64,000 nucleotides of DNA from Psilocybe cubensis (GCA_017499595.2 CM039006.1:2604001-2668000); one strand, 5' to 3'. Shown: positions 8,220 through 30,511, counted from the stretch's first letter. Notes: generated by a model not told the origin, from the sequence alone. A program made the numbers and translations.

Positions 8220-10090
8220 GTAAAGAAGGAAGGACGTGGTTCAATGATGAGTATTGTTATGGCTGTGAATTTGCTATACGGTGCTATTTTTGCAGTCTGT
8301 TCCAGCTGACACATTGAAGCCCCCTCACCGGACTGTCAGGATCAGGCGGAGATTCAAATAGTTGCAATTTAAAAAGTCGTGAATACTACTGGTACACCTT
8401 ACACTCTCTGTACACCTCAATCTTCACACACACATCTCAAACGGTTGAAAAACAGGAGATGCAGATGCCACATTGGTGGTTCGTGACGGTGTAGGTGGAG
8501 GGCATCTGGGCATCTGGAAGACCAGGAAACTGGTTTTGAAGGCTGTAATTTTGCATACGTGTACAGGCATTGGAAGCTGGGGCAGGGATGTGTGTTGATA
8601 TTTATGTTGATATCGCATGTATGTAGAAGGAATGGAAATTGGCATTTGATGCCGTGTTAACTGGATAAACGGCTAAAGATCATCAAACTAAGCACCCTTC
8701 CAAGCAACATTTTCATGATAATTTTGCATATTCGTATACCTATGTACAGTAAACACTTTAATCTACTTTAAAGCGTAAAAATTTTTTGGAAAAGAAACAG
8801 AGTCTTGAGTCGAGAAACGGGAATTTAAATCTCTACATCACTTTTGAATCCCTCGGATGATCACATCAGTAGAAACTAGCAGTGCACCCGTGCTTTGCAT
8901 GCAAATACGGGACAATTTATCATGTTATTTCCCCAGTGTTGCAATATTTTAAGGCCCTTCAGGCCCAATTAAAGTGTTTTTCAGCCTCTATTACAACGTT
9001 TTTAGTTTCGGAGCCTCCAAAATAAAATCCATCTACGTATCTACGTATTTTTAGACCAATAGGTAGACTACATTATTAAAACCAGTGGGGCACATCTGGG
9101 GTCTAGGGAGGATCATATGGGGGTCCATGTACACATTTGTGCACTTGTATGCGGGCCAGGATATGTGAATGACATGTACTACGAGTCCTGAACTTGAAGC
9201 TTCTGAGTCCCATACTCAAACCGCGCGGTATTACCAGCAAAAATGAACTCAATCGAAACATAGCCGATTAGCGCCGGCTAAAAAGGCGCAACGGGATGTT
9301 GCAGGTCCCCTCTGAGAGAGGATTCGTAAAATTTGAGAGGTGTTTGTGTAATTTTCCCTTGACGTTGCATTGAAATTCACGTTCAGTGCGCATCCTTGAG
9401 ACGCCCTTGATACTGTGCAACTTGAAGCTTGAAGCTTCAAAGAAAAGACTCTTCGGACTAAAACCGCCACACCATGCTGCCCCTCGGTTCATTCAGGCGC
9501 GGCACCGCTTTCTCTTCATATATAAACAGCAAAATCAAGCAGAACCGGGTTCTTCAAAGTTGAAGAGCCATATTCAGTGTTACCTTGAGGTCAAAGTTTC
9601 CATTCAAACTTACTCATCAGGGACCCAGAATGGGGTCTATCGTGCAGATCTTTGTTCCCCCAAGCCCTTCCGAGTCTCAGCAAAGTTCTTGCCAAGTGAT
9701 GTCATATGAGCAATATATGAGGGTCAATATCACCAAGTCTAGCTAACGTGTCAATGCCCTGCCTACTGCTAGACACACTTACCTTCTCGGCCGATAGATT
9801 GTATTTAGAACGCAAGAGTCGTCGTCGGTTGGCAGATATTCGGCAGAAAGGTGTGTCGAGGTGGGTTAACTTTTTTACAACTTTTTTCAAAAAAAGGCGG
9901 ACAGGGGTTTGTTTGTCGGATAATAGCGGCCGATCATCAAGCCATGCGATCGATGTGATTTCGGTTGCTTCCGACACATACAGACGCAAATTTTGGCTCT
10001 TCTTGAGAGGCAATGGCGATGTTGCGATTACTTGCAAGACCACTCACCCGTACTTCCATCTCACCACCGCTCCATCGTTTTTCGAGGACA

Positions 10091-12039
10091 ATGGCCACTG
10101 CAAATACCCCAGACTTCGTGCGTATCTGTGTCGACATCTATACACCCCCCTCTCTCAGTGATGCTGATGTGCTGTCCAACAATAGAACAAGGTCCTCTAC
10201 CAGCCTTTGGCGGAGATCGACCCCGAGGTCAAGAACATCATCGACAAGGAGACATGGAGACAGTTTACCGGTCTTGAGCTCATCGCTTCGGAGGTGCGTC
10301 TCTGGTTGTCTTCAATGCGTTTATCACCCTCCTAATCCTGGAATGCTGTAGAACTTGACCAGTCAGGCCACCATGGAGGCCAACGGTTCCATCTTGACCA
10401 ACAAGTACTCGGAGGGTCTCCCAAATGCCCGTTACTATGGTGGTAACGAGTACATCGATGAACTCGAGGTGCTTTGCCGCAAACGTGCTCTCCAGGCTTT
10501 CAACCTCGACCCCGCAAAGTGGGGCGTCAACGTTCAGCCTTACTCGGGTAGCGTACGTAGCTCACTCTCTATAGTGGACTCTTCTACTCACGAACAACAC
10601 CTATCTTGTGATTCATATTCTACAGACTGCCAAGTGGGTATTATTCCTGCGGAACGGATCTCCGTTCTTGAAGCTGACCATCGTTCCTTTTCAGCTTCGC
10701 TGCTCTCACCGCTCTAATTCAACCCAACGACCGCCTCATGGGTCTCGGCCTTCCAGATGGCGGACATCTCACCCACGGATACTATGTACGTGTCCTCCTA
10801 CCCTTCCTTGAGGCCTTTACGAAAGAAAATTAACGATATATCACGTGCATTACTTAGACCGCGAAGAAGAAGATGACCGCTTCGTCCATCTACTTCCAGT
10901 CTCTTCCTTACGCCATCACCCCCCAATCCAACCTTATTGACTATGCTGGACTCGCTGCCCAGGCAAAGATCTTCAAGCCCAGACTTATTATCTGCGGTGC
11001 CTCTGCTTACCCCCGTGACTGGGACTACGCTGAGCTGAAGAAGACGGCAACCAAGGAGGGTGCATGGCTCATGGCTGATATCGCCCACACCAGCGGTCTC
11101 ATTGCTGCTCAGGAGCTCAACAACCCCTTCGAATACTGCGATGTTGTCACTACCACTACGTGCGCTCTTTATTTCCATTTTGCGCATCGAGATATTAATA
11201 GTTCGCGATCAGCCACAAGACTCTTCGCGGTCCCCGTGCCGGTTTGATTTTCTTCAGGAAAGACCTCGAGAATGCTGCTGACCTCGAGAAGCGCGTCAAC
11301 GATGCTGTCTTCCCTGCTTGCCAGGGTGGACCCCACAACAACGTGCGCATAATTTTTTCTTGATTATTTCCTTGTATTGAACATGAGCCTCTCTTATTAA
11401 TAGACCATCGCTGCCATCGCCACCGCTCTCCTCCAAGTCTCGAAGCCCGAGTGGAAACTCTATGCCAAGCAGGTCATCTCCAACGCTCGCACACTCGCCG
11501 CTGCTCTCGTGTCCCACGGCTACAGACTCCAAACTGACGGTACCGACAACCACCTCGTCCTCTGGGATCTTCGCCCCATTGGTCTTACCGGCAGCAAAGT
11601 CGAGAAGGTCTGCGATCTCATGGGCATCACCATCAACAGTACGTCTTTATCGCTCTTTCTCACTTGTAATCAAAAAACAACCTCTTATATTTCCATTTTT
11701 TCAGAGAACGCTGTTTCCGGCGACGCGTCCGCCCAGGTCCCCGGTGGAATCCGTCTCGGCACATCCGCGCTCACCTCGCGCAACATGAAAGAGGAGGACA
11801 TCAAAGTCGTCGCCGAGTTCCTGCACCGCGCTGTGCAGCTCTCGCTCCTGCTCCAGAAGGAGGCCGGCTCGAAGCTGCTCAAGGACTTTGTCCGCGTCGC
11901 GACTGTGCCCCAGGAGGGCCTCGAGGGGTACAAGCAGGTGAAGCAACTCAGGGAGGAGGTCATCGCGTTCGCTAGCAAGTGGCCGCTTCCTGGTGTCGAC
12001 GTCACGACGCTCACTAAGCCCGAGGGCCTGCATGAGTAA
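10091..12039 (+). CDS. SHM2: Serine hydroxymethyltransferase, cytosolic type (multi-exon)
   Basis: Motifs [69 protein letters not shown] (PLP lysine), [24 protein letters not shown]. No mitochondrial leader seen. Confidence 0.96.
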
Positions 12040-13494
12040 AAAAAAACATGCAACAATCGGTGCCTTTATACCCGTTGTCCATTTAGCCCTCGACTTTCCG
12101 GTTCTCTTCTATCCCATCGGTCCTGGTCCAGGTCATGGTTCTGGTTTATTTTTGTTTCCCCCTCAAAAGAAGATTCAACGATCAACTCTTCACTGACTGA
12201 CTTGTAGATTCTATCATTGTCTTTACAATTAGAAGATGCAACACCCCGTTTATAGACGGACTTCAACATTGTCCGGCCCCCCCACCCATTGCTTATATCT
12301 TTCCTCTTTGTATTTCTAGTTGACGCATACCACGAATCTTACTTGACATCTATAAAAAAAAAGCATAATGTATATATTTCATGGCTATGACTCCGTTGTT
12401 ATTGAGTGTGCATGTGGTTCTGAAGGTGAGCGTAGGAATTTCGTATTTGTTTTTGGGCTGTTTTCGCTACTTTCAATGTTCCATGGCAAACCTGTGTGAA
12501 GGAGCTTTTCGAGTTGTTCGACGCGTGAAAGCCGCACAAATGCCAATGGCGCTATATATTGTAATTTATAAATTATAATAGGGCAGGAGCTTATGCATAA
12601 TATGAAGAGGGTCATGTCTCATGATGAGTTAAGAAATCGTACCGATGTGAATGGAATACTATCGCTTTCCCCTTCAATCAGTCGGTAGATTTGGGATACT
12701 GATTGCTGGTTGCTGAGCGCTGAGTACGAGTGTTCATGTTCTTCCTGTGCCGGAGGCACCCCTGACCTGGCCCATGTCATCAGGTGTTTTTCTGCGGAAA
12801 AGCGAGTGGCCCAAATGGAGAAGAACAACGTCCGCGTGCGGAGACACAACCGATGGAACTTTCAAGCCTTTTGTATCGGTGTAGGTTTGAGATAAAGTAA
12901 AACGCCGTATATGTGCCTGTCCGTCTTTCTTTTGGTTCTTCAAGTCATTAACGAGCTCTTTCCGATGAGCGTGGGAAAGAGATGGAAATTCCCGAACGTC
13001 CAGTCTGACTTGAGAAAGATTTTGTCGACTCAGTAGTTTTGGTGAGCTAGAAACTTCATCTCTTGCGCGCTATACGATCTACTTCTCACGTTCAAGCTGT
13101 ATATCATAGTTTCAGTGTTAGAACTTGACTGAAAGAAAGTAAGACCTTCATGCGGAAATCAAGTAGATCTGCCGTTTCCATGTTGCATTTTACCTGACCC
13201 ATGTGGAGGAGTATTCATTCTCCGGGGGGAAAATTGACAAAGAAAAAAGTCAGATAATGGGTGTCATTATGTCCAGAGCTGCTTATTTCTGCTGTGAGGT
13301 TGTCTCGTGTGGAAACTGACACGGGGTTATCCCTTTGTCCTATTGGCACCATTCGCACTTTGAAGTAATTACTAATAAACGGTCACCCTGGCCGTGTAAA
13401 AATAGCACACGCATGTTTCTAATCGCCGTAATATATGATAATATCAGGCCTTACAGTCATTTTTATTGATAATACCGTTGTATTGTAGTGCCAA

Positions 13495-14286
13495 TTGTCA
13501 TCAATAAACGACTGTTACTACTGTCCATTGACAAGCAGCCCATGTCTTTGGCGACTCTGCAGGTCTGCACACAGAAGCAGCGTCGATTGTCAATCAGCTC
13601 CTGATGGACAATTTATTAGCCCTACACAAGGAAGAAGCATTCGTTCAAATTGTCCATCACCTCCTGATGGACAATTTGATAATGACCTCCTTAGGGTACC
13701 TTGTTTGGAAAAAAGGGTGTGGCATTTCCTGGACTTGTCCATCATCGCACAAGTATACGTGGTTTGTATAGGACTTACTATATGCAGTATGATTTCTTGT
13801 TGTCAATCAATTTTCTTCATAACGCCAGGTATTGCCATTGTCAATCATCTTGTGGGTATTAAAATGTTTTTCCATGATTCATTATACGCAACGTTCTGCA
13901 CCTTTGTCGATCAATTCTTGGTGAGGCTCAGTTTGTTTCATTATTCAACGCGCAACATCAATTTGTCAATCACACCAGTGGCGTGTAATGGCCCGTCATC
14001 CCTTTCTTTCTCCTGGCCTATTGTCCATCATTGGTCATATCGGTGCCTAAATTTGTGCCTCGTTTGTCCATATAGGTTGTAGAACTATAGTAATCTTGTA
14101 CATCACCCTACAGCACATTTTTGGCGCATGCCCCCGTCCATTCAATTGTCGATCAGGCTCAGTGCTATATATACCTTTTACCTGTCAATTATTTAGCGCC
14201 ATGCAAAGCTGCAAGCGCTATTGTCAATCACAACGGATTTATGCCACGCGGCCAGCTTGAACGCTACTTGTATCATTTGTCAATCA
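13495..14286 (+). repeat. Left subterminal array of 10-bp motif TTGTC(C/A/G)ATCA
   Basis: Copies at 13587, 13650, 13735, 13800, 13838, 13904, 13963, 14021, 14146, 14221 and 14277, two inverted copies at 13602 and 13665, plus degenerate copies. Confidence 0.9.
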
Positions 14287-14374
14287 CACGCTATTTATAG
14301 AGAGCCCATCCTCGGATACATGACCTGATTTCTATAAAGGCCCACAGTTGAGGTTAAGGGATGCCTTCATCATC

Positions 14375-14728
14375 ATGAATCTTCGTTCAAGCACCAGTAT
14401 GTTTTTTATTTGTTTGCTCTCTCCAAGCGCATCCTAACAAATGCGGTATTGAATCTATAGGGAGGCTGAATGCTACACCAATTGGCCTTTTGATACCGCC
14501 TTTTCCAGATGATGGCGTCCTTTACTTAAGCCACAGGCAAATAGAGTATGTATTTGCTGAATCCTTCCTGACAGTTATCTATCTCTCATATGTACGACTA
14601 GACAAATTGCTTTGATATGTATTCAAGAACAAATCCGGACTGGTCAGCTTAAAATCCACGATAAATTAGATTTGAAAAGCCCAGATGTTGATGAGGGCCC
14701 CCGGCCAGAAGCTGCAAATAGAACGTAG
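14375..14728 (+). CDS. Putative 77-aa three-exon microprotein upstream of the transposase (not in ORF track)
   Basis: ATG at 14375. GTATGT..TAG introns at 14397-14460 and 14546-14601 keep the frame: MNLRSSTRRLNATPIGLLIPPFPDDGVLYLSHRQIEQIALICIQEQIRTGQLKIHDKLDLKSPDVDEGPRPEAANRT*. TATAAA at about 14333. Confidence 0.45.
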
Positions 14729-14923
14729 ATTTGATTAGTAATTGGCAATTGGCCACTACCATAATGGACCAATCAACGTTTTTGAACCCTTCTGAAATGT
14801 CCATCAGCGAGATAAAGCTTTCGTAACCAAGACAATCAACCTACCTTCATTCTATCTAAAGTTCATACCCACATATTTTGTTACTTTCCCTCCCCAGGAT
14901 CCATCCTTCAGAGTTTCGAAGCC

Positions 14924-17900
14924 ATGGGACGACAACGCAAGCAGAAGAATTTTCAAGTCGATGAATACGAATCGCCAGACGAGAAACTTGCCAAAGAGGC
15001 ATTGAAAGGAGACGTACATACAGACTATCTAGGGAAAAAACAGCAAACAGTTCGTCTTTCTCTGCCTGTTGGAGTTGATCCCAAACCTTTCCCTCCATTG
15101 ATGTCCAACGACTCCCCAACACCAACCCTTGATTGGGTGTTGCAAAATGAAACTCCATTTCGTGTGTTTGATGGTGATATTGAAATACAAGAAATGGAGG
15201 ATTGTGAGCTGGAGGCTTTGGGGATAATTAAATACTTTCGACGCACAGAAATCCCGTCCGAGCAATCAGACATAATTGAAAATCCTCAAAAAAAAAGGAA
15301 AACCCATTCGGTGAAGTGGATCTTACTTATTTACATCAGCTTTGTCTCTGATATTCCCCATGATGTGTTCTAACTTCTAGACACATCCGATTCATTTCTG
15401 GACCCCACACATTGACTCCTATGTTGACGAGCTGCTACGATTAGAAGCACCCGCTGGACCCATGGACCAATGCAGCAACACATCATGCACTGCTTTATTA
15501 GATTGTGCTTTATTTCGTTGTAGGGATTGCTGGGGCGGAGCTCTGCTATGTGCGGATTGTATAGTATCATTGCATAAGCAGAATCCGCTCCACAGAATAG
15601 AGGTTTTTCTATCTACAATTCCACAGTTATCTGGTCGCTTACCCATTATTTATCTCAGCATTGGACCGGTACATACTTCAGAAAAATATCTTCAAAATCA
15701 CTGGGTCTCCGCATCCAACTTGGCCATGCCGACGGTATTTGCGAGGTCCCCATCCCTGCGTTCAATGATAGCTTTGTCATAATATCAGTGAATGGGATCC
15801 ACGAAGTGGCTCTGGACTACTGTGGATGTACTATGGCACAATCTAGACCCACTCAACTGCTCCGTTCACGTCTATTCCCCTCTACAGTCAGCGACCCTAA
15901 AACTGCTGCGACCTTTGAAGTTCTCGAATACTTTCAGTTGCTTTCATTCAATACAAAGTCTTCTGGTTTTGAATTTTATCAAACTTTATCAAGGTTGACG
16001 GATAACACGGGAACAAAACCACCTCCAGTAAGAACTTCGTACTAACATTTATTTTCCAATGGCGCTAATGCTTAAGCTTTTGAGGATTGTTATCCTGTCT
16101 TTATGCGCATCGTAAGAGAATGGAGACATGTTAGGTTGCTTAAGCGCATGGGGCGCGGCCATGCAGAATCGGGCGTTGAAGGGACAAAAGAGGGAGAATG
16201 TGCTGTTTTGTGCCCCGCGTGCCCTCATCCGGGTATCAATATTCCGGAAAACTGGCAAGAGCGCCCAGAATCTGAGCAGTGAGAGTTTTATTGCTTTTGT
16301 CTATCACTGTCTTAAATTTACACTCTTATAGATGGATTTATTCACTATTTATTGGAATAGATGCAAATTTTCGACTCAAGAGAATGAATGTATCAAATGA
16401 CGATCGAGATCCCCCTTTAAACCATGGCTATGCTTACATGGTTGAAAGTAGGAAGTTCAGAGAATACTTGGACACTTACGACTCAAAAATTCCCGATGAG
16501 AAAAGTAATTGCAATAATCATGACGCTATCAAATCTGCAAGCATTCGAGGTGGAAAAGGAACAGCCGCCAGTGGGTTAGGCACTATTGAATGCAGTCGAC
16601 ACGATATGAAGCGTCCAGTATCCGTTGGAGACCTTCAAAAGGGCGAAAGGTATGTATTTGATAAACTGTAAAAGTTATCCATCAATCTCTTACCATCTTA
16701 TCAAATTGTCCATCATTCTTGCTCGTAATCACCAATTACGGAACATTGAGATATGTTAATATGGATTACTTTTTTCTGTCAAGCATCGCATTCATACTTC
16801 TCCATCGCTTGGTGGTATCTTATGACATTGCTTGCCAGTGGTGGTGTAATCTGATGAAACGGTGTTTAGTATATCCTCCAAACTCACTTTCAACTTTGAA
16901 TCTAGACATTGTGTACTTGGTACCAAAATTTCACCTTCCAGCGCATATCCCAAAGTGTCAAACCTCTTTCTCATTCAATTTCACTCCTGGAGTTGGGCGC
17001 ACTGATGGCGAGTCTCCTGAACGTGGTTGGTCATCAGCAAATGGAATTGCCAGTAGCACAAAGGAAATGGGGCCAGGATCTCGGAACGATACCCTGGATG
17101 ACCATTTCGGGGATTATAACTGGCGCAAAATCATTGGAATGGGTAGGAAACTTACTATTGCTTTTTGACATATCTCATGCTTCAATTTACAGCCAACACA
17201 TTTGTACGCAAGGCCAAAGAGGCCATTACCGCTCGGGAGGAGCACGTAGAGGCTTTCATTGAATTTGATGCTGCCTTACCGGTAGAAGTCACTACGGAGT
17301 GGACACGGCTATGTCAAGCATGGGAAAAGGATTCTAGCCAAATAAACCCATATGTCATTCCAAAAGGAAAGGGAAAAGGCGGTGAGTAATCGAAAAAGGG
17401 TACTAGAATTCCCTGATATTCAACTCCGATTGATAGCCACTGTAACTGAAAGGGATGTGCGACTAAAGCTTGCCGCTGAGGATGCAGCCTCCCTGGCTAG
17501 GGGAGACGCCATACAAGTGCACGATGATATTAGTCCAAGCCTTCTTATATATCAGGGACTCCAATTTGAGGAACTTCAGTATGTTCTGGTTACCTGTTAC
17601 AAACCTCAGCCACTTACTAATTTATCTACAAGGCACCGTATTACACATGATAGCTCCAAACTCGGACTTCACGCTACCAGTTTACAACAGTCAAGGATAT
17701 TGGAACGGTCCAACTCCCTCCGACGTCGCATAGATGCCTGGATATCCATCCAGCATTTATACATGCCTGTCGTAGCTTCGATCCGCTCGCGTGATGATGC
17801 GGGAGCTACAGAACCAGTTGCTGTGCAGGATATAAAGCTTTTCCTCCCCTCATTCAACACTGTTACTCTCCAATGTTCACACTTGTTGCTAAAATGCGAG

Positions 17901-18682
17901 TGGGAGTATCGAAATGCACAAGCCGAAGAAACTCTAACATCACTCCGGGCACTTCTGTTGCTGCGGTCGCATATGTACAAGTCAAAACACCAACATTCTC
18001 GTGGCCAACGCATGCAAACTCGAAGTCAAAAGCTACTATCAGATGTCCAAGATAAAATTAATTATTTGGTGAAGACATATAGGAGGATACATACAGCATT
18101 AGAAAACCTGTCTCCAAGTCTCATTGAAACCTCGTGGCGCACTGTGTATCGCCCTCTTCTTGACGAAGACGTGGCTGGTCTGACATCATTGGACGATTCT
18201 GGTAGCGAAGGCAGGAAGCAATTGTCATGGATTTGGAAAGTCCAAGGAACTGGCGCTGACGCCGATGCATGCACCCAAGCAGGTAAGCAGACCATCCGCA
18301 AGAGTACTATAACTTAATTTTGCCGTTTCTTATTTCAGCTTTACGTGTAGAGTGGTGTAAGTCGCGTGCGAGGGCTCATCGTTGGCAAGAGGAGTGCATT
18401 TTGCTTGCTGAAGAAATGCGCCGGGTTATAGGCTATTTTGAATGGAAGAAAAATCAGTGGAAAAATTGCGTGGCAGCAGTCCAAGCACAGTACAGTGCCG
18501 ATTCAGAGTCCGTAATACCAATGCAGCAGGAACTTTGCAACGGAAAAGTTGCTTACGCACATCGACAACAAGCAATTTGTGGAGATATCATGCTACGTTG
18601 CCAGAATGAATGGCAGGGTCTTTCACACTTGCTAACACATATGGAAGGGCGGAATGCATGGGTTATGGTAGAATGTCATTAA
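14924..18682 (+). CDS. CxC2 cysteine-cluster + KDZ transposase (multi-exon)
   Basis: FRCRDCWGGALLCADCIVSLHKQNPLHRIE|HWTG, LGLRIQLGH, NGIHEVALDYCGC, CPACPHPGINIP. Catalytic-type motifs GIDANFRLK, CSRHD, DLQKGER|YVNMDY, VSYDIACQW, PKFHLPAH, GRTDGESPERGWS. C-terminal RVEWCKSRARAHRWQEEC..EEMRR. Confidence 0.93.
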
Positions 18683-18836
18683 CGTGTGTAGTCTCTTTTC
18701 AATAATCAAAAATTCTACCATAATTAAGAGTTCAGTTTGCGGGGCTAAAAGCTTTTGATAAATTCTGTCCTTCTTGGTATGTACGATTTTCAAGGCCCAA
18801 GTCAATTTATTTTTCAAGTTAGAGACAGACGACAAG

Positions 18837-19842
18837 TCAAAATATACGTGATATAAAACATTCAAGAATTGACGTGTGGAAAAAACGGAGCAGTTTACAT
18901 TTCAAGACGATATGTTTGAAGATCTGACGGACCATCTTAGAGTGCAGCACTGTCTGTTTCATCAGAAGTGGGGCCAGAAGCAGTGGTATCCGGAATATAC
19001 ATGCTTCGGAGGGGGGATGGACCAAGTTCTCCAGAATGGTGCCTAAAGGCGGCGCACTTGATCGTTGGTTCCTGCGACCTCACAATCTTAGACCTGGGGG
19101 TAAGTAAAGACTAAATCTCAGAAAAGAACAGCTATACCATTCTTTGCTGACATCCTGCAGCAAATTCCGCCAAGAGCTGCGCATCTTTAAGAACGTCTTC
19201 ATCCTCCTGGAGCCGAAAGACCTTCTTGCGTTGGGCCTCAAGGTATCTTTGCGCTTGAATTTGGCGTTCGTTGACTTTCTCCTGATGTTTGGCCTCCTGT
19301 TTCTTACCATGGATTTCTTCTTCATGTCGACGAACTGTCTCGTCGCAAAACTCTTTCCAGTGTAAGGTGGCAGGATGACACCAAACTCCAGCAAAACACA
19401 ATTCAATAAATATTCTCTATTGAGCCTGTTAGAGAAATCATGGACGGATTTGAAAACACGAAGATACGCACCCGACGAGTGATTTGCCTTCGATGAGCAA
19501 CAGCTTCCAGATCATCCTTGTCTGTTGGTATCTCTGGCCATAGGGTGAACCACACAGAGTAGAAACGGTTGAGGAAAGCCTTCCTCTCCCCAATCCTCCA
19601 CGCTTGCATGTAGTAGGGGCCTGCCTCCTCAGTGAGCTTGAATTGTGCGGCTGCAACGGTGCGTGATATCATCTTGCGACGAGGTTGGATAGTGACAGGC
19701 TTTAAAAACACATTAGAAGCGTGTCATTCTTGTCGGTTGAAACTGAGATGCTTACCGGGTAGGGGTGTAACACCTTGGACTGCAGTGAGTTGTCCCTACT
19801 TGTAGTTTTATCCTTCTTGACGTTGCGTGTTTTGGGCATCAT
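18837..19842 (-). CDS. KDZ-element cargo gene A, hypothetical (3' end uncertain)
   Basis: Spliced exons MMPKTRNVKK...HPYP|PVTIQPRRK...KAFLNRFYSVWFTLWPEIP...|RIFIELCFAGVW...coiled-coil-like EEEIHGKKQEAKHQEK. GT-AG introns. Confidence 0.55.
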
Positions 19843-20355
19843 AAAGCAGTTGCGATGGAAGTGAAGAGTGAGGAACACACACTTGACGATTGCGTGGATT
19901 ACCCGCCTATAAACCCGTGTACAAGGTTCGTACTCCTCTTGAAGTCCATTTGATGGACAATTGCCAAAGGAATGACAGGAATTGCCTGTCATGCTTGAAG
20001 AATTGTCCATGGGCGCTTCAGTAATTGATGGACAATTGTTGAAGGTGATGGATAAGTCAAGCGCACATGTACCTCAATGACGTAGTATCGGTTATTGGTA
20101 CACCCGACCCGGTCTATGATTCGTGGGAAGGTTGGCTGAAACATACAATAACATAGAAATGGTGTAGATAATGATACAAGCTATGTATGGATTCTTTAAA
20201 GTCATATTTGGAATCAGAATAATAATCCCTTTCAAACAATACCTCTTTGAGGACAGTTTTCTACAGTTGCTAGTAAAAGTTAGAAGAATCCGTGGTTCAG
20301 TCACAACTTGACTACGTTTCACAAGGCAACGCACACTTTGTCCTGTACCACCACT

Positions 20356-21047
20356 ATGGGTAGACCCAAAAAATACAAAACCGACGAAGAACTAAAAGCT
20401 GCCAATCGTGCCAAAGCAAAACGGCATTATTATAAGTAAGTTTATTCAGCCAGGCAAGTAAACTACAGCGTACTAATTAATATTCAACTGTTTTCCTAAC
20501 AATACAGAGAGCGAGGCAAGATTTTGACGGAAAGACGTGGGACATACAAAGAATGCCACCCAGACCTGTACGTTGGATATTTTCATATAGTGCTATTGAC
20601 ATACTAAAGATATCTATCCTAAGCTCTGAAATTCCGGAAAAAAGAGGGAGTGTCGTAACCCATATAGAATTAGAGAAACCGGAACCCCTTGGAGTGTGGA
20701 TGGATCAATGTTGGAGACTCCAGCGACGATTTTGGCGCTTCATCGGAGAAGATCAGAAGTCATTTCTGGATACCATATGCCAGAAGTTCATAGACACCGA
20801 AGACGATACAGAAATCGAAGAGCATCTCGCCACATTACACAACTTTGAGACATCCATTCAGCGTTATAAGGGAAAGATTCTACAGATTTCAGGCGTAGAA
20901 AAGCCTCTCCTCCAGGTTCAAGAGATAGAAAGGCAGATTCATACATTGATAACTTACTTACAAGACATACTATGCCTTACTCTCTTCGACCACTCTAGCT
21001 TCCAAAAAGCCTTTACTTTTCGCCAGTTTGACTATCAAAAGGTGTAA
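20356..21047 (+). CDS. KDZ-element cargo gene B, small basic protein with N-terminal AT-hook-like GRPKK
   Basis: MGRPKKYKTDEELKAANRAKAKRHYYK|ERGKILTERRG..|SEIPEKRG...WMDQCWRLQRRFWRF...FDYQKV*, with two introns. Confidence 0.7.
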
Positions 21048-21222
21048 ATAGGACTCTTATATCATATCACACATTTTCACTTTGGATGCAAACATGATAT
21101 TTTTTAAGCACGGTATATACACATAAATGGAGGCAGTCCCAGCACAACAAGCAAACAGATAGGTACGACACGATAATAGCAGGTGGGACAGCAAGGTGAT
21201 AACAAACGGGAGCAAAAGATGA

Positions 21223-22797
21223 CTAGACCCCTTTGACTTCAACGTTTCCCGCATCAAGAGCCTCTTGGAAGGCGGCATAAGCAGCTGCCTCATTACTGTA
21301 CCTCCTGTAGACGGATCCCCTGACTCCAGTGACAAGGGGGGAGACATTGTGCCTATAACTGTTTCAGAACAAAAAAGAGAAAAATCTCATTGAAATTACG
21401 TACCAGCCAGTAAACACACCAACTCGCTTTCCCTTAGTCACAACATAGTAAGGCTCCGGAGTATGGAAATGAATCTGCATTTGGCAATTAGGACAAAATC
21501 CTGTGTGAGCGGCTGCAACGGGGGCGGCTGCAACAGGAGCAGTTGCGACGGGGGCGGCTGCGATGTGGTTGGCTGTGACGGGGGCTGCGGCTGCGACGTG
21601 AGCAGTTGCAATAGGAGCAACTGCGATGGGGGCTGCGACGTGGGCGGCTGCAACAGGAGCAGTTGCAACGGGGGCGGCTGCGACGTGGGTGGCTGCAACA
21701 GGAGCAGTTGCAACGGGGGCGGCTGCGATGTGGTTGGCTGCGACGGGGGCTGCGGCTGCAACGTGAGCAGTTGCAATAGGAGCAACTGCGATGGGGGCTG
21801 CGACGTGGGCGGCTGCAACAGGAGCAGCTGCGACGGGGGCGGCTGCGATGTGGTTGGCTGTGACGTGGGCTGCGGCTGCGACGTGAGCGGTTGCAACAGG
21901 AGCAACAGGAGCAACTGCAATGGGGGCTGCGACGTGGATGGCTGCAACAGGCGCAGCTGCAACGGGGGCAAATGCAACAGGAGAGGCTGCAACAACGGCC
22001 TCTGCAACGTGGTTGGCAGCTACGCCAGATAACGCCATATCATCAGGTATATCAGAAACGTAGGAAATGTTGTCTTCATCGTCGCTGTCCTCAACAAAGA
22101 TACAAGCATTATCACTGGTGAGAGGATCTTCCTCACCATGTGATGCATGGGTTGCAGCTTGGGCGGGAATCAATACCAGAAAGCGTATATTAAGGTGCAT
22201 GTTACGGGACTTACCTGTTGGAACACCAACCTGCTCCATGAATAGTGCATCAATTACCGCATTACGCTCGGCGGCACGGTTGTCAGAGAGACCTAGAAGA
22301 TAAATCAGTCAGAGGGAAGCAGCTCCAGTCGGTGCTTGAACTGACGGATAGCTTCGGTTGGTCCTGCATCTGATCGAGTATATATCAGTTAGAAACGGAA
22401 GTGTATTGGTTAATATTAATACATACAATTATCTGGGACGGTGTGAATATCTATAATGGGGAAGAGAAAACTTATTCAATGGAATAGGCGCGCCCCCATG
22501 AAGAAGACTTACCAATGGATGTTGCGTTGTTGGGACAAACATTTGAATTGAACCCAATGATGCCAAAACGACGAAGGCAGAAGACAATGGCCACAATGAG
22601 ATTGCCCATTGGGATGTCTTCCACACCGTTGTGACTGACTATCGTATCAGTTAGTAACGCTGAATCAGTGGTTTGACAGGATGATTACCGGGAAGCTCCA
22701 ATGCTTCAAGAGCGGCACTAATAGTGTCTACATTCAATTCCATTGCATCTGTATTGTCGGCGTTGTTCTGGATGCTTGTGAGCAAGGGAGGTGTCAT
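21223..22797 (-). CDS. KDZ-element cargo gene C: Ala-rich repeat protein with C-terminal RNase H1 N-terminal (hybrid-binding / caulimovirus viroplasmin-like) domain
   Basis: Multi-exon, starting MTPPLLTSIQNN. An Ala/Pro/Val/His repeat is followed by CPNC and PYYVVTKGKRVGVFTGW|HNVSPLVTGVRGSVYRRYSNEAAAYAAFQEA, which matches the YxVxxGxxxGVYxxWxxxxxxVxG...xxFxxxxxAxxF pattern. Confidence 0.78.
21505..22025 (-). repeat. Coding minisatellite (~15-bp units with higher-order repeats) encoding APVAA/AHVAA/NHIAA
   Basis: Repeated ggctgcaacaggagc / ggctgcgacgtg / gcagttgc units. The block AAAHVAAPIAVAPIATAHVAAAAPV.ANHIAAAPVA recurs. Confidence 0.9.
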
Positions 22798-23152
22798 TTT
22801 TGGAGCTCAGTGAGTGGGATATTTGGAAGGTTGAGTTGGGGGATATATGGGAAGATTGCCCTTATTTGAATCGATGGACAACTATACAGTAGCTCGGTAA
22901 ACGGCGGAGAAGCCGAATTGGTAAGCCAAGCCACAGATCGGATGTAGATTATGGAAGCTACGAGCGGCAGTGCTGGGGAAAGGGCCGCTGAAGGAGGGAG
23001 CACCCATTCAGCCCAGAGGAGTACTCGATATACATTGTAGGCGCCTCAAAAAATATATTTGGTATATGTTGCTGATATATTCTTAGATCACTTATTCTTG
23101 GAACATATCACCGGCACTTTTAATATCTGTGACATTGTTTTTCCGTGCCAAG

Positions 23153-26100
23153 ATGCCGCCAACGCCGTGGGCCACGCCCGACCAAATCGAGTTCATGTCT
23201 ACTTGGTTACCACAGTTCCAGGATGCTCAGCGTAATAAAAATATAGCCGATTTCTGGGTGAAGTTATATGCCAAATTCTTCTTAAGGTGGAAAGGGCCTG
23301 AAGATGAAGTTCAACCCGATTTGGTTCAGCTAAAGAAACGTAAAAAAGACAACAGAAAGTTACCTCAAACATCGACGCCTATTGAGTTAGATCATGCTGC
23401 ATGGATTAAGCTACGGAAGACGGTGAGATCCATAGCTTTTTTTTCTGATTTGATTCAATCAATGTCTAACGAATACCCTTTTTGTCCAATTCCATGTCTA
23501 ACGAATTCCATTTTTGACCGATTCCATGTCTGACGAATTCCATTTTTGACGAATTCCATGTCTAACCAATTCCATGTCTAACCGATTCTAGCAAATCGCT
23601 AACTGGTTTAATAACCGGGGCAAAGGAAGCGAGAACCGACGCCAAGGCCCCGCCATAGTGATTGGATCTGCAGGGCCCAGTCAACGCGCCCTCTCTGAAC
23701 TGAATGTCTACTCGAAGCGGTACTACAATGAAAAAATATGTTCTCTCGTGGAAAAAGAACTCGAAAAACAAGGCGGCCCCGCCCACATTGCTCTTATCAA
23801 TAAATGTATCAGTGAGGCATGGGCCATGGAGTCCGAAGATGTCAAAGAGGAGATTCGCGCAGAGACAAAGAGGTTGAAAGAGTTACTGAAGGAAGATCGC
23901 TCTGGGAATAGCGAGCAACCGACTCCTCAGGAATACGCCAAGTACGTTTGTTTTGGCTGCGTTGATTCAATTATTATTGATGAATTACTAACCAATTACA
24001 TGATTTAGAGCGATTATGGAAGCTCCTGGTCAAATTACAAACTTTCTTCAAGAAATGTACAAACGCACTGGCTGGTGCTTGAGTCTCCTAGCTGGCGGCC
24101 CTGATCCCTCGCGTCAAGGAAAGATTCGTACAATCAGCATCCATATGGGAAAGGACAAATTCGACCAGTTTTACTCGTGTGCCTATCCAGACTTTCAGGA
24201 AAATGTTTTGGGTTCGTACCGCAGCTACTTATACAATGTATATTGTGAGTATGGTTTCTATTAAATGAATATACAGAGACTCACAAAGTGTTATATATAT
24301 AGCTCAGAAGGATAGAGATAATCGCGCCCTCTCTGAAACGGAGCCTATAGCGAGTATGAAAACAGATAAAGGTGGGATCATGGACGACTGCGAAGACAAT
24401 TCCGGTCCTACCGTTCAAATCGAGGTTGAAAAACCAACACTGGTAGGAAATGAAGACGGCCCCAATTTGATGGATCCTGACGGCCGGAATGATATACCAG
24501 CTGCGGCGACCGAGGATACACCAGCTGTAGCGACCGAGGATACACCAGCTGCAGCGACCGAGGATACACCAGCTGCAGCGACCGAGGCAACCGTTACCTC
24601 CACAATCAGGACCACGGAGCCATGTAATGGTGTTACGCAGACTCCTGCAACTCCTGCAATAGAAATACTGGGTCATGGCCTTGCTATTGATGGAAACAAT
24701 ACCAACGCTCAACAATGTTCCGACAGTGGCCCAGATGATAGCCGCCCAGTGTCTTTGGTAGATCCCCCAAATGGAAAAGCGATGGACGGAGACAAATTGT
24801 ATGCAGAAGAAGACAAGGTGCTTTCGTTCATGGAATTGTTGAACGTGGATGGGGGTTACGACCCAGAAAGAGACCCATTGCTTCAAATTTCTATGAACAA
24901 TGTGTTTTTTTCAAACCATCAGTTTGTGGGCAGTACACAGGAGAACAGAGCATTTCAAGTACCTATAACAGCAACGCCAATGGCCTGGGTTCCGCGTCCC
25001 AAAGATAACACTTCCTTTAATGTACAAGCACCTGTAAATTTGTTTCCACCCATCCCAACGTCGACAAACAATCCAAATGGTCACAGTCTGCCTTTTTATC
25101 ACCAAGAGGGCCTCATTACTCCTGTGTATGCTCCGACGGCTGGATCTTACCTTTCAGCCCAGCCGGCAGTGATGACAGAGCAACCGATTGCTCCAGGTCT
25201 TTTCCCAACACTGCAGTCGGCATTCACACCTCCCTGCGCACCGTATTTTGTTCAACCAGAAATGATGCCAACAATATCCAATCAAAATTGGGCTCATTCA
25301 AACACTTTGTCGGCAGTAACACCACCTGTGCCTGAGCAACTGGGGTCCTCGACACTGATGGACCATTGTGAACCCCAAAATCTGCCATCGTTGAGATTTT
25401 CTGATGCCCTGTCGACGGGCATGCCAAATACTGGGTATACCAACCCTGATATATTCCCCCAGTTTGTCCAAGCGACTCCTAGTCTGTATGGGTCTGGCCA
25501 CCACAACGTCACAATACCCCAGATAGTTCAAGCACATGTAGGTGTCAGTGCCTCTGGCGTTGCACAGGAATCGAGAACGTCATCACCCACTAGCCAGCTA
25601 GATCTCAGGGCCTCAATGCACTCCCCGCAATCACGCCCATCTGCTTCTGAGAAACAAGAAAGAATTCCGGTAACAGGGGGGCATCCAACACCTCGGGACA
25701 CAGTATCCGACAATACCAACTGTACAACAGCAACAGGGACAATGATAGTCCCCACCCCAGCCCTTGAATCTGTTGCTCATGCTTCGCAAACCCCTGTCTT
25801 GAACGAAATGAATGCTGAAATGCAGCACGTCGTCGGGGATGGTGGCCGTCGAGCTCGCAAGGCCGCAAGTTCAAGGAATGTCCCTATGCAGCAAATGTGG
25901 AGAACAGCAGCATTTGAGCACCTTATGATGCCTGAGATAGATACGGAGAAATGGAAATCATGTGTAAAGGCATGGGTTGCATTTGAGGATTCGCAATGCA
26001 ATGCCATCGAAACCAGTTCGGTAAGTAATTTTAGAACAGTAACAGAATATCAACGCTTACAATAATACCAGCTCCGATTCCCAGCTGCGATGAGGCCAGC

Positions 26101-26497
26101 GGTCCTGACCAAATGGTTATCGACTCGTAAGTACGGGAATGTCCCTGATATTGGAGCCAAATTTGGGGATGAGTGGGTAATGTGGTGGAATAACAGTCAG
26201 CCTAAATGGAGGCAGAGCTCGGAGGCTGGTAAGCTTCCACGATGTCTGTCTATTGCAGGAGGGAAAGACAGCATCAACATGTTGAAGAAAGGAGGTCCAA
26301 ATGGATTGGTAACGGTGATGATTGGGTTGAGGTGGTGGGCAAAACAGCGACACTCCGACCCTAGATGGGAAGAAGCCGTTGAAGACATCCTTGCTGTATT
26401 CCAAGCATTCCAAGGAGGCGGTAAAGTGACTAAAAAGCGTAAGGGGGACGAGGAAAACATCGAGGCAAAGCCGAAAGTGAAAAGGAGGAAGACATGA
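23153..26497 (+). CDS. KDZ-element cargo gene D: large protein with HMG-box-like segment, long low-complexity middle, Trp-rich C-terminal domain and terminal NLS
   Basis: MPPTPWATPDQIEFMSTWLPQF..FWVKLYAKFFLRW; ELNVYSKRYY...INKCISEAWAMESEDVKEEIRAE (HMG-like); TGWCLSLLAGGPDP; WVMWWNNSQPKWR...KGGPNGLVTVMIGLRWW; KPKVKRRKT*. Confidence 0.8.
23461..23589 (+). repeat. Tandem ~15/30-bp repeat in intron 1 of cargo gene D
   Basis: Alternating ATTCCATGTCTAACGA and ATTCCATTTTTGACCG-like units directly before the 3' splice site. Confidence 0.85.
24496..24588 (+). repeat. 24-bp coding tandem repeat x4 (PAAATEDT)
   Basis: ccagctgc(g/a)gcgaccgaggataca units. Confidence 0.9.
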
Positions 26498-26632
26498 TTA
26501 TGATGTTGCTCTTTCTCTTTGTCAGTTCCCACGCGACCCATCTAATGTTTTTTTGCGCGGTTCTTTTGAACAAAAGCTAAGTTTAATATACTCTCTTGGA
26601 ATAAAATGCAATTTAAAACTGATACCCATGGG

Positions 26633-27354
26633 AGATGGACAATCCGGTTGTGATCAATAAAGTTCAGTGGGTGAATATCTGTTCAGGTCCTGGCAAATGA
26701 GCGGTTTGATTGACAAAGAATGGAGTGGATCGATGAAAGGAATTGGTAATCTGCTGAATTTATGCGGCAAATGGACAAATGAAGAGGGAGTGCCGCTAGG
26801 TATTGGAGAGCGCCATAAGGTGTCCCTCTAGGTCTTTTGTTGATGGATAAATCTCCTTGCAAAAGGGTGAGCGGGATAGATGGACAATTGGCGCACATTT
26901 TGAAATATCTGACGAACTGACCAGTACGCCCTCCCAATGATGGACAAAGGGTATGGCAGATGATATTACCAACGTTCAGCAGACATTGACAAAGTGGATG
27001 CGGATGAATGAAAATAGATCGACAACCGCACTATGTATGGATGAGCCACCATAGGCCATAAATGATGGACAACGTCATGATATTGCACATGGGGCATTTA
27101 TACATGAATGCACTGTAGAGGATTGGTAAATATAGCGGACATGATGGACGAGTTAACAGGTAGATGGATCATGTAACTATGGACAACGTACTGGAAATGG
27201 ATAATCCAAGAGGTATGGTCCGATGGACAAAAAGGATATTTATTGATTGAGAAGTACCACCTATAGACAGAGCGGCTACCATCGACAAAAGCTATGAGTA
27301 TCAAAAATGTGGCTGGAGCAGGCATGGTATAGTATGGTCGGTGGACATCGACAA
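26633..27354 (-). repeat. Right subterminal array of motif (T)GAT(G/T/C)GACAA, the inverse of the left array
   Basis: Copies at about 26633, 26707, 26769, 26841, 26878, 26938, 27015, 27063, 27142, 27177, 27221, 27279 and 27345. Confidence 0.88.
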
Positions 27355-28174
27355 TCTCATTGCGTATAAACAATTCCAAAGGCATTGGTAGGTATGCGAA
27401 TTATGAATGAAGATTGTTACTGTACTGCAATGGTTTATACATTATCACGGTTGTATCTGGTGATAATATACATACGATTGCATTCTACAAGGCAATGTAA
27501 GCGATTGAACTAATAAACTGAGTTTTACTAACTTGTTTCTTCTTGAAGTAACGAAGCTTTCAGATAACAACTGTAGATGATCTGGGTATTTTCATGGGTG
27601 TCGTGGCTCGCTGGGTTACTTTAGGCATTCAAACTTCAAACCGCTTTACCGTGATTTATCGATATAAATAGGTTTCACTGACTTGGAAAAACCAGATGAA
27701 TACCAACTATCCATGTCAAGATACCTAGAACACCAAACCATGAACATCTGAACCATGGATAGTATACTTGGGATTTCAGTCGAGATTTGTAATTATTGGA
27801 AAAGAAAACCTCCTTTCAATGGCAGTAGGGGAGCATTTACACTTACAGCTGGTATTATTCGCATTTGAGACTCAATGGATTGTGAGTACCTGCATCTCTA
27901 AATCGACGCGAGTTCAGAGATATAATATGGAGTGGTCATAAGGAGGCCCAATCCTCTGAAACTAGATAACCAGTTCACCGGATACTTAGTTATTTTTGGA
28001 TTTTTCTCTAGATGGTGTAATTATATCCTTCTCCCTCCTGGTTACGAGCTTATACATACATTGTGAGCTCCTAGAAATCGTATAAAACCTATAGAAAAGA
28101 GGATGAGTGATACTAAGATCCTTCAAGTGGTTCTACTCAGCTCAGTACTCCTAGTCCTCTGCAAACATTAGCGC

Positions 28175-28757
28175 ATGATGTTTTCAAAGTTCAACCTGAT
28201 CAAGGCCATTGCCATGACCATTGCTTTGGCTGTCGGCACTCAGGCTGCCCCCAGCAATGCTTCGCCTGCTTTGGTCAGTAGTATCTCTACAGTCTCTGAC
28301 ACTCTGTGCTTTATAGAACAATTTTAACACATTTCTATACAGGTCGCACGCGACACAGAGGCAGCGTCGGTAGACGGGCACCTTTTCGTCTGCGTCAATG
28401 CCCAATTTGTCCCGCCATGCAACAACTTCAATTTCAATGACGGACAATGCATCAACTTTGTTGCGCCTTTCCAGGACAGCATCTCGAGCTTGGGACCTGA
28501 CCCGGGGTTCACCTGCATTGTCTTCAAGTCAGTGTTGATCCAATTATTCGCCATTTAATTATTGACCATGTTTCAAGGGACTCCAACTGCTCTGGAGAGA
28601 GCCTCGACGTCTCCAACCCCGGTATTTCCGACCTTTCTCAGGGCACCGACCTCAACGACCAAATCTCCTCTTTCCAATGCTTCGCAAACTGGTTAGTTGC
28701 TCATTTCTGTTATTTGTGCCATTTTAATTGGATAATAACTTTGGGTTGACATACAGA
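28175..28757 (+). CDS. Small secreted Cys-containing protein, beta/gamma-crystallin-like, copy 1
   Basis: MMFSKFNLIKAIAMTIALAVGTQAAPSNASPAL|VARDTEAASVDGHLFVCVNAQFVPPCNNFNFNDGQCINFVAPFQDSISSLGPDPGFTCIVFK|DSNCSGESLDVSNPGISDLSQGTDLNDQISSFQCFAN*. It has a signal peptide and two (N/Q)DxISS crystallin-type motifs. Confidence 0.75.
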
Positions 28758-30034
28758 TTTTGCTCTGAAGGATTTAAGGATTACAATGTGCTGTTTGAGT
28801 GAGGGATTGAGGCCTCCCTTATAATATAGCCTCAAACATTTGTCGAAATAAGAAATACATATGTTGTAAATTGTCTGATCTGTCGGTTCAGTGATGCCAG
28901 ATATATCACTTGTGTCATCATAAGTGCATTTTTATGAGACGACTCTCCTATGACTGAGTAAATGGATTAAATTTACGGTTAGATGGTTCCTGGTATATGA
29001 CAGGAATCAATACAGGAGAAGTCGGAGGCCAATGTCGAAGCAAATACGCCTTTAAAGATTACTCTCACTCTCCCTCTCCTACAATCTAACATAGCATTTA
29101 ATAATACACGACCATAACTCTTCTGTTTAGGTGCAAGAGAACCATGGAACCTGGACCTTCCTGAAATTTAAATCAGGAAAAATTAAATTTACCGCCTTTT
29201 ATTTCAATCCATCCCAACCGGTCAATTCTTTTCATACAAAATGCTAACTCACTGGCATAACAAAGGCGACAAACTTTCCTTGCTAGCTTAATCTCTATTT
29301 TGTGACCGACGTCGGGCGATTTGTCAGTGGGAACCTCATGCACAAAAGTGCGACGGAGTTTTTCACTTGATATCATTGGCACCATCCGCACTCAAAATAG
29401 AATCAAAGAAACCAATTGGTCAGTAAAAAATAGCACACGCATGTTTCTAACTCCCGCATCTCTGCCAAAAATGCAGTTACATGGTATTGTATCGAGTCCT
29501 ACTGGCCACATTTTCTTGATATTAAAATGCTGTTATTTAGAAAGCTGCTGTACTATTGGCTATGGTTATGATCTGTTGAAAACGAAACTCGCCTGATCAT
29601 GAGTATCTAACTTAGAAAAATAAAAATCTTAATGAGCCTGGTGGTACTACCACAATTTTTGTGGATTTACAGAGCACAATACTGTTCCGAATGGTCAGGA
29701 GAGGTAGCATTTAACTCGCCACTGGTTATACCCGTACTCTGACTCGATGCTTTGCAAACAACTTCATCTGTAAAGTCGGAGTTAACCCATGAATACCGAG
29801 TCATAGGTCGGTACAGCGTACTGAAACGAGATGAAGAGTATCCCAGATATCGGACCATGCTCGTATCTTTTTGTTAATGATGTATTTCCATTGTCCTTAT
29901 TCCACATTCCGGTCCAAGTTTGAAGAGAAGTGTGGCCGTTAAGAAATCGTATAAGAGGTACAGGTCAGACAAAGGGTAATACTCAGATCCTTCCTGCGGT
30001 TCTACTCAGTCAACCTTTTACACATTAACGCACA

Positions 30035-30511
30035 ATGTTCTCCAAGTTCAATCTCATCAAGGCCATTGCCATGATCACCGTTTTGGCTGTTGGCGCTAGC
30101 GCTGCCCCCAGCGTCGCTGTATCTGATCTGGTTAGTGTTCATTCGATATTCCTTTTTTTATACATGATTTAATACATGCAACACAGACTGTACGTGAAAC
30201 AGAGGCAGCGTCAGTAGATGGGCACCTCTTTGTCTGCGTCAATGCAAATTTCGTCGCACCCTGCAACAATTTCAACTTCAATGACGGCCAGTGCATCAAC
30301 TTTGTTGCGCCTTTCCAGGACAGCATCTCAAGCTTGGGGCCTGATCCAGGCTTTACTTGCATCGTATTCAAGTCAGTATTAGACCAATACTAGCCACTTT
30401 ATTGTCTGACTCTGTTAAAAGGGACTCCAACTGCTTTCCAGTGCTTTGCAAACTAGTCAGTTTTTATTTTCTGTCGGTCATCATAATGGATGATAACGGG
30501 CAACATACAGG
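30035..30511 (+). pseudogene. Copy 2 of the crystallin-like secreted protein with an 80-nt frameshifting deletion in exon 3
   Basis: Exon 2 is nearly identical to copy 1. Exon 3 reads AACTGC|TTTCCAG and lacks the equivalent of 28591-28670. Confidence 0.7.

Follow-up and report, generated by a model that had tools for sequence, protein, structure and literature searches.

A probable 14-kb Kyakuja-type KDZ transposon with four companion genes varies in presence between strains of Psilocybe cubensis

We analysed a 64,000-nucleotide stretch of the Psilocybe cubensis genome (GCA_017499595.2, CM039006.1:2604001-2668000; hereafter the window, to which all coordinates refer unless stated otherwise) and conclude, with a probability of about 0.88, that positions 13445-27462 are one autonomous DNA transposon of the KDZ superfamily and of Kyakuja type. 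The element encodes a CxC2-KDZ transposase and four companion genes, is bordered by 7-bp target-site duplications, and is present in some strains and absent from others, and occupies at least two genomic sites. It adds a new and unusually well-delimited member to the Kyakuja group rather than constituting a new kind of element. A first-pass annotation made from the sequence alone had proposed a bounded multi-gene KDZ transposon at this place, and the proposal holds: 14 kb with all five genes are absent as one block in two strains. Its features, with the evidence for each where it is specific, are the following (aa, amino acids; TIR, terminal inverted repeat; P0006, a paralogous transposase; X13, one of the sequencing runs described below).

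13445-27462, plus strand: whole transposon, 14,018 bp, with 5'-CA...TG-3' ends and without a TIR (empty allele and second site)
13438-13444, no strand: left 7-bp target-site duplication ATAATAT (empty-allele joint, second site in X13, shared 7-mer)
27463-27469, no strand: right 7-bp target-site duplication ATAATAT (shared 7-mer and read joints)
13587-14286, minus strand: left subterminal array of 13 TGATNGACAA sites, 11 of them on the minus strand (motif count)
14924-18682, plus strand: transposase gene JR316_0010227, 9-10 exons, about 1,085 aa (Pfam, alignment to P0006, open spliced model)
18937-19839, minus strand: gene A, JR316_0010228, partly coiled-coil-like and without a Pfam domain, 240-246 aa according to the gene model chosen
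19951-20035, plus strand: two exact TGATGGACAA copies, starting at 19951 and 20026, in the divergent A/B promoter region
20356-21047, plus strand: gene B, about 195 aa, three hand-inferred exons (~20356-20435, ~20508-20567 and ~20624-21047)
about 21223-22239, minus strand: gene C, acidic N-terminus, Ala/Pro/Val repeat and putative C-terminal split Cauli_VI domain, start codon uncertain
23153-26497, plus strand: gene D, JR316_0010230, 988 aa without a Pfam domain, its low-complexity middle flanked by conserved N- and C-terminal regions
26633-27230, plus strand: right subterminal array of 7 GATNGACA(A) sites, 7 of 7 on the plus strand (motif count)

Boundaries and strain polymorphism

The element opens with CAGGCC at 13445 and closes with CTGGTG at 27462, and ATAATAT is the sole 7-mer common to both end regions that has the CA and TG dinucleotides adjoining it. 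To look for an empty site and for another copy, as the first-pass annotation had suggested, we turned to sequencing runs, which were screened for sampled words of the interval 9445-19444: seven runs reached at least 0.8, and two runs with the same organism label contain about 0.3 of the sampled words. Four runs (X8, X9, X10 and X13) were aligned to 11000-30500. The empty joint is found in X8, X9 and X13. X8 and X9 represent two other strains with the same species label; in each, a single contig (depth 83 in X8, 46 in X9) joins 13435 to 27461, skipping 14,025 bp, that is, the element and one copy of the duplication, with 9 ambiguous letters (TGATAATAT) at the joint, and neither run has any coverage in the 21 bins between 13604 and 27274. 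The same joint appears in 8 raw reads of X13, a third strain, and this run has full depth over the element.

X13 further reveals the second insertion. At its left end 10 reads match inward from 13445 and are preceded by ...CAGTGAGGAA, at its right end 14 reads match through 27462 and then continue into TGAGGAACC..., and the insertion is flanked by the 7-mer TGAGGAA; the flank sequence was not found within the 64-kb window. Because these flanks differ from those of the first site at the adjoining base on both sides, the element is exactly 13445-27462. The start originally assigned to it, 13445, is thus confirmed to the base by the second-site reads, and the end originally assigned, 27575, lies 113 bp beyond the true one. 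Target duplications of 7 bp accompany the element at both of the two sites, ATAATAT here and TGAGGAA at the other. The depth of X13 over the element, ~19-42 per bin, equals that of the flanks, which together with the empty-site and second-site reads fits about two element copies per dikaryon, as we infer for this run.

No TIR was found at the ends, which match at 5 of their first 10 and 9 of their first 20 bases and give an end-to-end local alignment score of 15, against a mean of 11.4 and a maximum of 20 for shuffled sequences. With two 7-bp duplications and no TIR, the element does not show the 8-bp duplication, usually joined by TIRs, of Zisupton/Dileera-type elements. Its end regions had been described as gene-free and about 0.8 kb long; gene-free they are, but the non-coding stretches measure ~1.5 kb on the left (13445-14923) and ~1.0 kb on the right (26498-27462). 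Rfam and tRNA scans of 12000-30500 gave no matches.

Two smaller observations concern the same regions. In X13, five reads lack 77 bp of the right subterminal array (27220-27298), which suggests that the two X13 copies differ by one repeat-spacing unit. Outside the element, just left of the insertion site, a 25-nucleotide stretch (13398-13422) recurs identically 16 kb off at 29426-29450, and an adjoining 33-nucleotide stretch (13327-13359) is 76% identical to 29360-29392, both pairs being non-coding.

Transposase, subterminal motif and companion genes

The transposase comprises an N-terminal region, a CxC2 zinc cluster, a KDZ catalytic core and a long C-terminal region. Pfam matches the CxC2 family (PF18803) at E 4.4e-41 over profile positions 2-107 of 107, and the KDZ family (PF18758) at E 1.6e-19 and 2.3e-39 in two exons that jointly cover profile positions 1-217, so that the protein carries both a KDZ catalytic domain and the N-terminal CxC-type cysteine cluster expected of the superfamily. 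Weak splice signals (a GTTTTT donor; a GAG acceptor at 16086) led us to use homology-guided models instead of ab initio ones, with the junction at 16029-16086 corrected by eye. The resulting model is one open coding sequence of 1,085 aa with canonical GT..AG introns; its pieces align along residues 4 to 1085 of the paralogue P0006 (1,085 aa), with 707 of 1,085 residues identical. DANF, YDIAC and GESPE lie at residues 394, 520 and 582, in agreement with the uninterrupted CxC2-KDZ transposase originally described from these motifs. The annotated model, P0003, is 94% identical to the queried transposase exon and has 876 aa, some exons of the homology-guided model being skipped.

Both subterminal arrays are built from a 10-bp motif with the core GATGGACAAT that points toward the nearer end. 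The form TGATGGACAA has 10 exact matches in the 64 kb where 0.27 would be expected, and every one lies between 13602 and 27072; TGATNGACAA, the same motif with its fifth base free, has 21 matches in the window where 0.86 would be expected, and the element contains 20 of these. In the left array (~0.7 kb) two inverted pairs, 13587/13602 and 13650/13665, are separated by 5-bp spacers, the two plus-strand sites each pairing with a neighbour; from the right array (~0.6 kb) degenerate copies extend to about 27352. With 11 of 13 left sites on the minus strand and 7 of 7 right sites on the plus strand, the mirror orientation that had been remarked on is real. Besides the two exact copies between genes A and B, two more lie in transposase introns (16297-16306 and 16706-16715).

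Beside the transposase we find four genes rather than the roughly five first counted, and their strands alternate as then described (A minus, B plus, C minus, D plus). Pfam recognises no domain in A, B or D. Gene A has a paralogue, JR316_0007622, at 85% identity and a metagenome homologue at 32-36% identity; it shows no significant similarity to the N-terminus of gene D (E 1.0).

The short first exon of gene B encodes a basic N-terminus, MGRPKKYKTDEELKAANRAKAKRHYYK, which is followed by a 120-aa helical bundle; relatives of the gene match this N-terminal exon at 20356-20436. The family of the main exon counts 102 cluster representatives at E<=0.001 and 9 at E<=1e-10, and in 10 of its clusters that were looked up, those members that carry a species name belong to Agrocybe pediades and Pholiota molesta. 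An AlphaFold2 model of the protein is a helical bundle with a mean predicted local distance difference test (pLDDT) value of 85 and about 97 in the core. Foldseek returned no match for it among PDB folds at E<=0.001, PDB sequence searches with the gene B profile and with gene D gave none below E 0.001, and the ESM Atlas offered for gene B only scores <=0.80, to viral hypothetical proteins, and for the gene D C-terminus no usable match. A homodimer prediction for protein B scored 0.03, which has no bearing either way. One source names the Agrocybe member 'BZIP domain-containing', but the Pfam bZIP models match no B-family member at E<=0.05. The AT-hook-like protein of the first-pass annotation is not supported; it came down to a GRP at the start of gene B that its relatives do not conserve.

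Gene C contains a repeat of 15-nucleotide period encoding Ala/Pro/Val (21478-22039) and a putative RNase H1 N-terminal (Cauli_VI, hybrid-binding) domain split by an intron. Profile positions 1-18 fall on one exon with 15.7 bits and positions 19-43 on the next with 14.2 bits, both below the 21-bit cut-off for the full domain of 44 residues; the two scores sum to about 30 bits.

For gene D, P0001 is 100% identical to the queried exon, and a paralogue, P0002, is 77% identical overall, the differences lying mostly in the middle. The full protein matches no Pfam family at E<=0.05. The HMG-like protein once suspected here goes back to a single gene D exon scoring 16.7 bits against a cut-off of 25.4; the match vanishes on the full-length protein, which leaves the HMG-box assignment unsupported, and the structure model (mean pLDDT 30) is unusable and too poor to judge the matter. 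The first intron of the gene is filled by a 16-bp tandem repeat (23462-23588; consensus ATGTCTAACGAATTCC, about 7.6 copies). Finally, Pfam gives no Tet_JBP match in any open reading frame (ORF) or annotated protein of the element, in keeping with the earlier remark that no TET/JBP gene is recognisable.

Since the empty site lacks the whole block, all four companion genes move with the element in P. cubensis. Two further loci bear on whether the set is dedicated to it. On another contig of the same genome, of 3.5 Mb, a diverged paralogous locus holds a transposase (JR316_0007621), gene A (JR316_0007622) and gene D (JR316_0007624), the tags 7621, 7622 and 7624 being spaced as 10227, 10228 and 10230 are here; on the queried exons identity is 86% for the transposase, 85% for A and 85% for D (77% overall). 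A metagenome scan, run with a narrow alignment of close relatives of one B-family cluster, returned one locus, the 8,014-bp contig L001, on which a related transposase, homologues of A, B and C and the core end motif occur together (coordinates of the contig):

4988 to 1383, minus strand: transposase, 51-85% identity per exon to that of the window
6152 to 5847, minus strand: A homologue, 36% identity
6885-6965 and 7157-7555: B homologue (cluster representative, E 8.9e-12), 29% identity
8014 to 7747, minus strand: C-like split Cauli_VI domain at the contig end, with the same split point and 44% identity to the last exon of gene C

Between 98 and 926 the contig has 7 GATGGACA sites, every one of them on the same strand, where 1.45 would be expected in the first 1 kb, and these have the core GATGGACAAT in common with the arrays of the window; its A/B intergenic region contains GTGTCCAT twice. 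The same intergenic region (about 6150-6760) is made up of a unit of about 300 bp in two direct copies, each with TGGTTTGTCCGTTTG twice and GGTGTCCATTACG once, the latter having TGTCCAT in common with the end motif. L001 ends before the position where D could be assessed. In Agrocybe pediades the B homologue and a KDZ homologue each list a longest contig of 29,030 bp, which is no more than a hint of a similar linkage.

The dedicated accessory set that had been postulated is thereby supported, by a transposase with A and D at the paralogous locus and by a transposase with A, B, C and the motif in L001. The expectation that homologues would co-occur in the same order stands in L001 for A-B-C beside a KDZ transposase, and fails there for the orientation of the transposase gene. 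We infer that A-D are long-standing companions of the lineage, A, B and C across genera and D so far only within Psilocybe.

Relation to known KDZ elements and competing explanations

The ends of Kyakuja were published in December 2025 (PMC12730594): Kyakuja-1_LB and Kyakuja-2_LB have 7-bp target-site duplications, 5'-CA..TG-3' termini and no TIRs (Kojima 2025, PMC12730594), and the present element has all three of these structural hallmarks. Like these two elements of Laccaria bicolor and the other TET+ families, it is a multi-gene element with a KDZ transposase in an Agaricomycete host; unlike the TET+ Kyakuja families, which were chosen for their carriage of AG-type TET/JBP, it has no TET/JBP dioxygenase detectable by Pfam, gene B being all-helical, and carries genes A-D instead. 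It further has oriented 10-bp arrays, while the main text of PMC12730594 does not contain the word 'subterminal'; the supplements of that paper could include Kyakuja families without TET. Cryptococcus KDZ1, KDZ2 and KDZ3 (Huang et al.) are likewise large, low in copy number and polymorphic among strains, with mapped ends and extra ORFs without known domains, and their mobility is documented (10.1101/2024.08.15.608186; PMC12810828). They differ in their length of 9-11 kb, 236-241-bp TIRs, 8-bp duplications, CxC1 domain and membership in the Dileera clade (10.1101/2024.08.15.608186; PMC12810828), and in having two accessory genes where the present element has four; within the parts of these sources covered, no relation between the two accessory sets was found. 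Zisupton belongs to the same transposase superfamily and differs by its TIRs (Bohne et al. 2012 as summarised in PMC12730594), its 8-bp duplications, made also by the Dileera element Zisupton-1_PGr (PMC12730594), and its CxC4/SWIM architecture (10.1101/2024.08.15.608186). The premise of the first-pass annotation that KDZ elements are mostly without mapped ends has thus been overtaken by Kyakuja (PMC12730594) and Cryptococcus KDZ1-3 (10.1101/2024.08.15.608186). No literature naming both Psilocybe cubensis and KDZ was among the matches listed, and neither the A-B-C module nor the oriented end motif is described in the parts of the literature covered, whose supplements may differ.

Several points count against an autonomous Kyakuja-type element with a dedicated gene set. 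Insertions were seen at just two sites; the haplotype that bears the empty allele is diverged, with 37-38 differences in 1,017 bp of right flank, so that the polymorphism could be old; and contigs are better at showing presence than absence. The Kyakuja assignment draws on structural hallmarks rather than on a transposase phylogeny. Each Cauli_VI half-match of gene C is singly below the Pfam cut-off. The transposase gene of L001 is inverted relative to A-B-C, and order is therefore kept for the A-B-C module and not for the whole element. Gene D, with two matches among 330 candidates, both from P. cubensis, has no homologue outside this species in that search and could have been acquired recently. 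Pfam would miss a TET/JBP as divergent as the PE type; the presence of one is unlikely here, since the confident model of B is all-helical and no beta-rich domain is predicted in A, C or D.

The element is probably still mobile, a view to which its polymorphism and intact frames lead. The foremost alternative, unlikely though to be taken seriously, is that it moved formerly and that the copies now segregating are immobile, as its low copy number (the annotated genome has one cluster member for this subfamily, and X13 about two copies per dikaryon) and the diverged haplotype of its empty allele would allow. Against such a fossil speak its five reading frames, all of them open, its intact ends and arrays, and the uniformity of the X13 reads on the stretch, flanks included: 3,813 of 4,276 are at least 99% alike even though two element copies contribute.

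That the element belongs to Dileera, Zisupton or an unnamed KDZ clade rather than to Kyakuja appears improbable. CxC1-bearing Cryptococcus KDZ1-3 fall in Dileera (10.1101/2024.08.15.608186), so the CxC type alone does not settle the clade; but the duplications of Zisupton and Zisupton-1_PGr are 8 bp long, and TIRs are present in Zisupton and Cryptococcus KDZ1-3, whereas 7-bp duplications at two of two sites, CA..TG termini and the lack of a TIR are exactly what is reported for Kyakuja in the parts of PMC12730594 covered.

We consider it similarly improbable that the transposon is real and genes A-D are host genes picked up not long ago as passengers, without a part in the life cycle of the element. 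Host-gene capture by DNA transposons does occur, passive transfer of TET/JBP being discussed in PMC12730594, and one might so read the absence of recognised domains in A, B and D and of detected relatives of D outside P. cubensis. However, A, B and C homologues stand beside a related KDZ transposase in L001 at just 29-44% identity, which argues for long co-inheritance; the paralogous transposase of P. cubensis has kept A and D beside it; conservation of D is far stronger in the N- and C-terminal regions than in the middle; and the end motif recurs in the A/B promoter region.

Deletion or rearrangement between short repeats in place of transposition can practically be dismissed, as the 9-bp microhomology of the empty joint (TGATAATAT), although longer than the 7-bp duplication, owes its extra TG to the element's own TG terminus, the same two ends abut unrelated sequence to the base beside TGAGGAA in X13, and the whole 14 kb are missing everywhere in X8 and X9.

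Proposed mechanism, genomic surroundings and significance

From the sequence of the Kyakuja-type element a cut-and-paste mechanism can be proposed. The transposase, through its CxC2 zinc cluster or together with an accessory protein, would bind the repeat arrays and pair both ends, the basic-region protein of gene B being the best accessory candidate for array binding; the KDZ core would then cut at the CA/TG termini and integrate with a 7-bp stagger. Through the motif copies in its interior, the element's own genes would come under the control of the same binding protein, and for A-D we propose regulatory, architectural or anti-silencing roles. A precedent for such an anatomy is maize En/Spm (CACTA), in which a short motif is repeated in both subterminal regions, oriented relative to the ends, and bound by TNPA. 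En/Spm encodes a transposase and a second protein and has CACTA TIRs and 3-bp duplications, and the binding of TNPA is proven. The likeness is one of anatomy only, in the many oriented subterminal motif copies; the transposase superfamilies are unrelated and binding in the present element is a prediction.

More speculatively, and with considerable doubt on our part, the element may represent a TET-less Kyakuja lineage in which an A/B/C module, with D added in Psilocybe, shares the labour: B might bind the oriented GATGGACAAT arrays at both ends and the copies in its own promoter, much as TNPA does in En/Spm, and the hybrid-binding protein C and the other companions might counter silencing by the host, taking the place of the TET/JBP dioxygenase of sister lineages. 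If true, few self-regulating cut-and-paste transposons of eukaryotes would be richer in genes, and the accessory protein family would be one not described before.

The surroundings of the element in the window hold other features of their own. A Ty1/copia long terminal repeat (LTR) retrotransposon occupies 2561-7796 on the minus strand, with 280-bp LTRs (2561-2840 and 7517-7796) that are 99.3% identical and one open 1,482-aa gag-pol frame with Retrotran_gag_2, rve and RVT_2; it looks young and intact. The left neighbour gene, at 11000-12334, is covered by a 1,707-nucleotide contig of run X10, guessed to be RNA, with three GT..AG introns of 53, 61 and 66 nucleotides. X10 covers only this part of the aligned region, no RNA run was among those listed as containing the element, and this has no bearing on expression of the transposon, which begins about 1.1 kb beyond the end of the transcript contig. 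To the right lie two tandem paralogous small genes, 28165-28591 and 30022-30435, that are 78% identical. X8, X9 and 22 X13 reads carry a joint from 28669 to 30434 that skips 1,764 bp with 7 ambiguous letters, and 5 X13 reads carry a reciprocal joint that goes back from 30418 to 28575, variation that looks like unequal crossing-over or copy-number variation, not a transposon.

For the family, the present copy is a base-exact, TET-less Kyakuja that is naturally polymorphic. In the parts of the literature covered, Kyakuja was known for a decade only as neighbourhoods of transposase and TET/JBP genes, and when its ends were defined in late 2025 this was for TET-carrying families only. An empty site, a second insertion and intact genes make the element a practical candidate for testing KDZ transposition. 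Its oriented subterminal motif is kept in a diverged relative, and its A-B-C module travels with the transposase. For Psilocybe genomics, finally, the 14-kb structural variant at this locus is to be read as a mobile element and not as host gene content.

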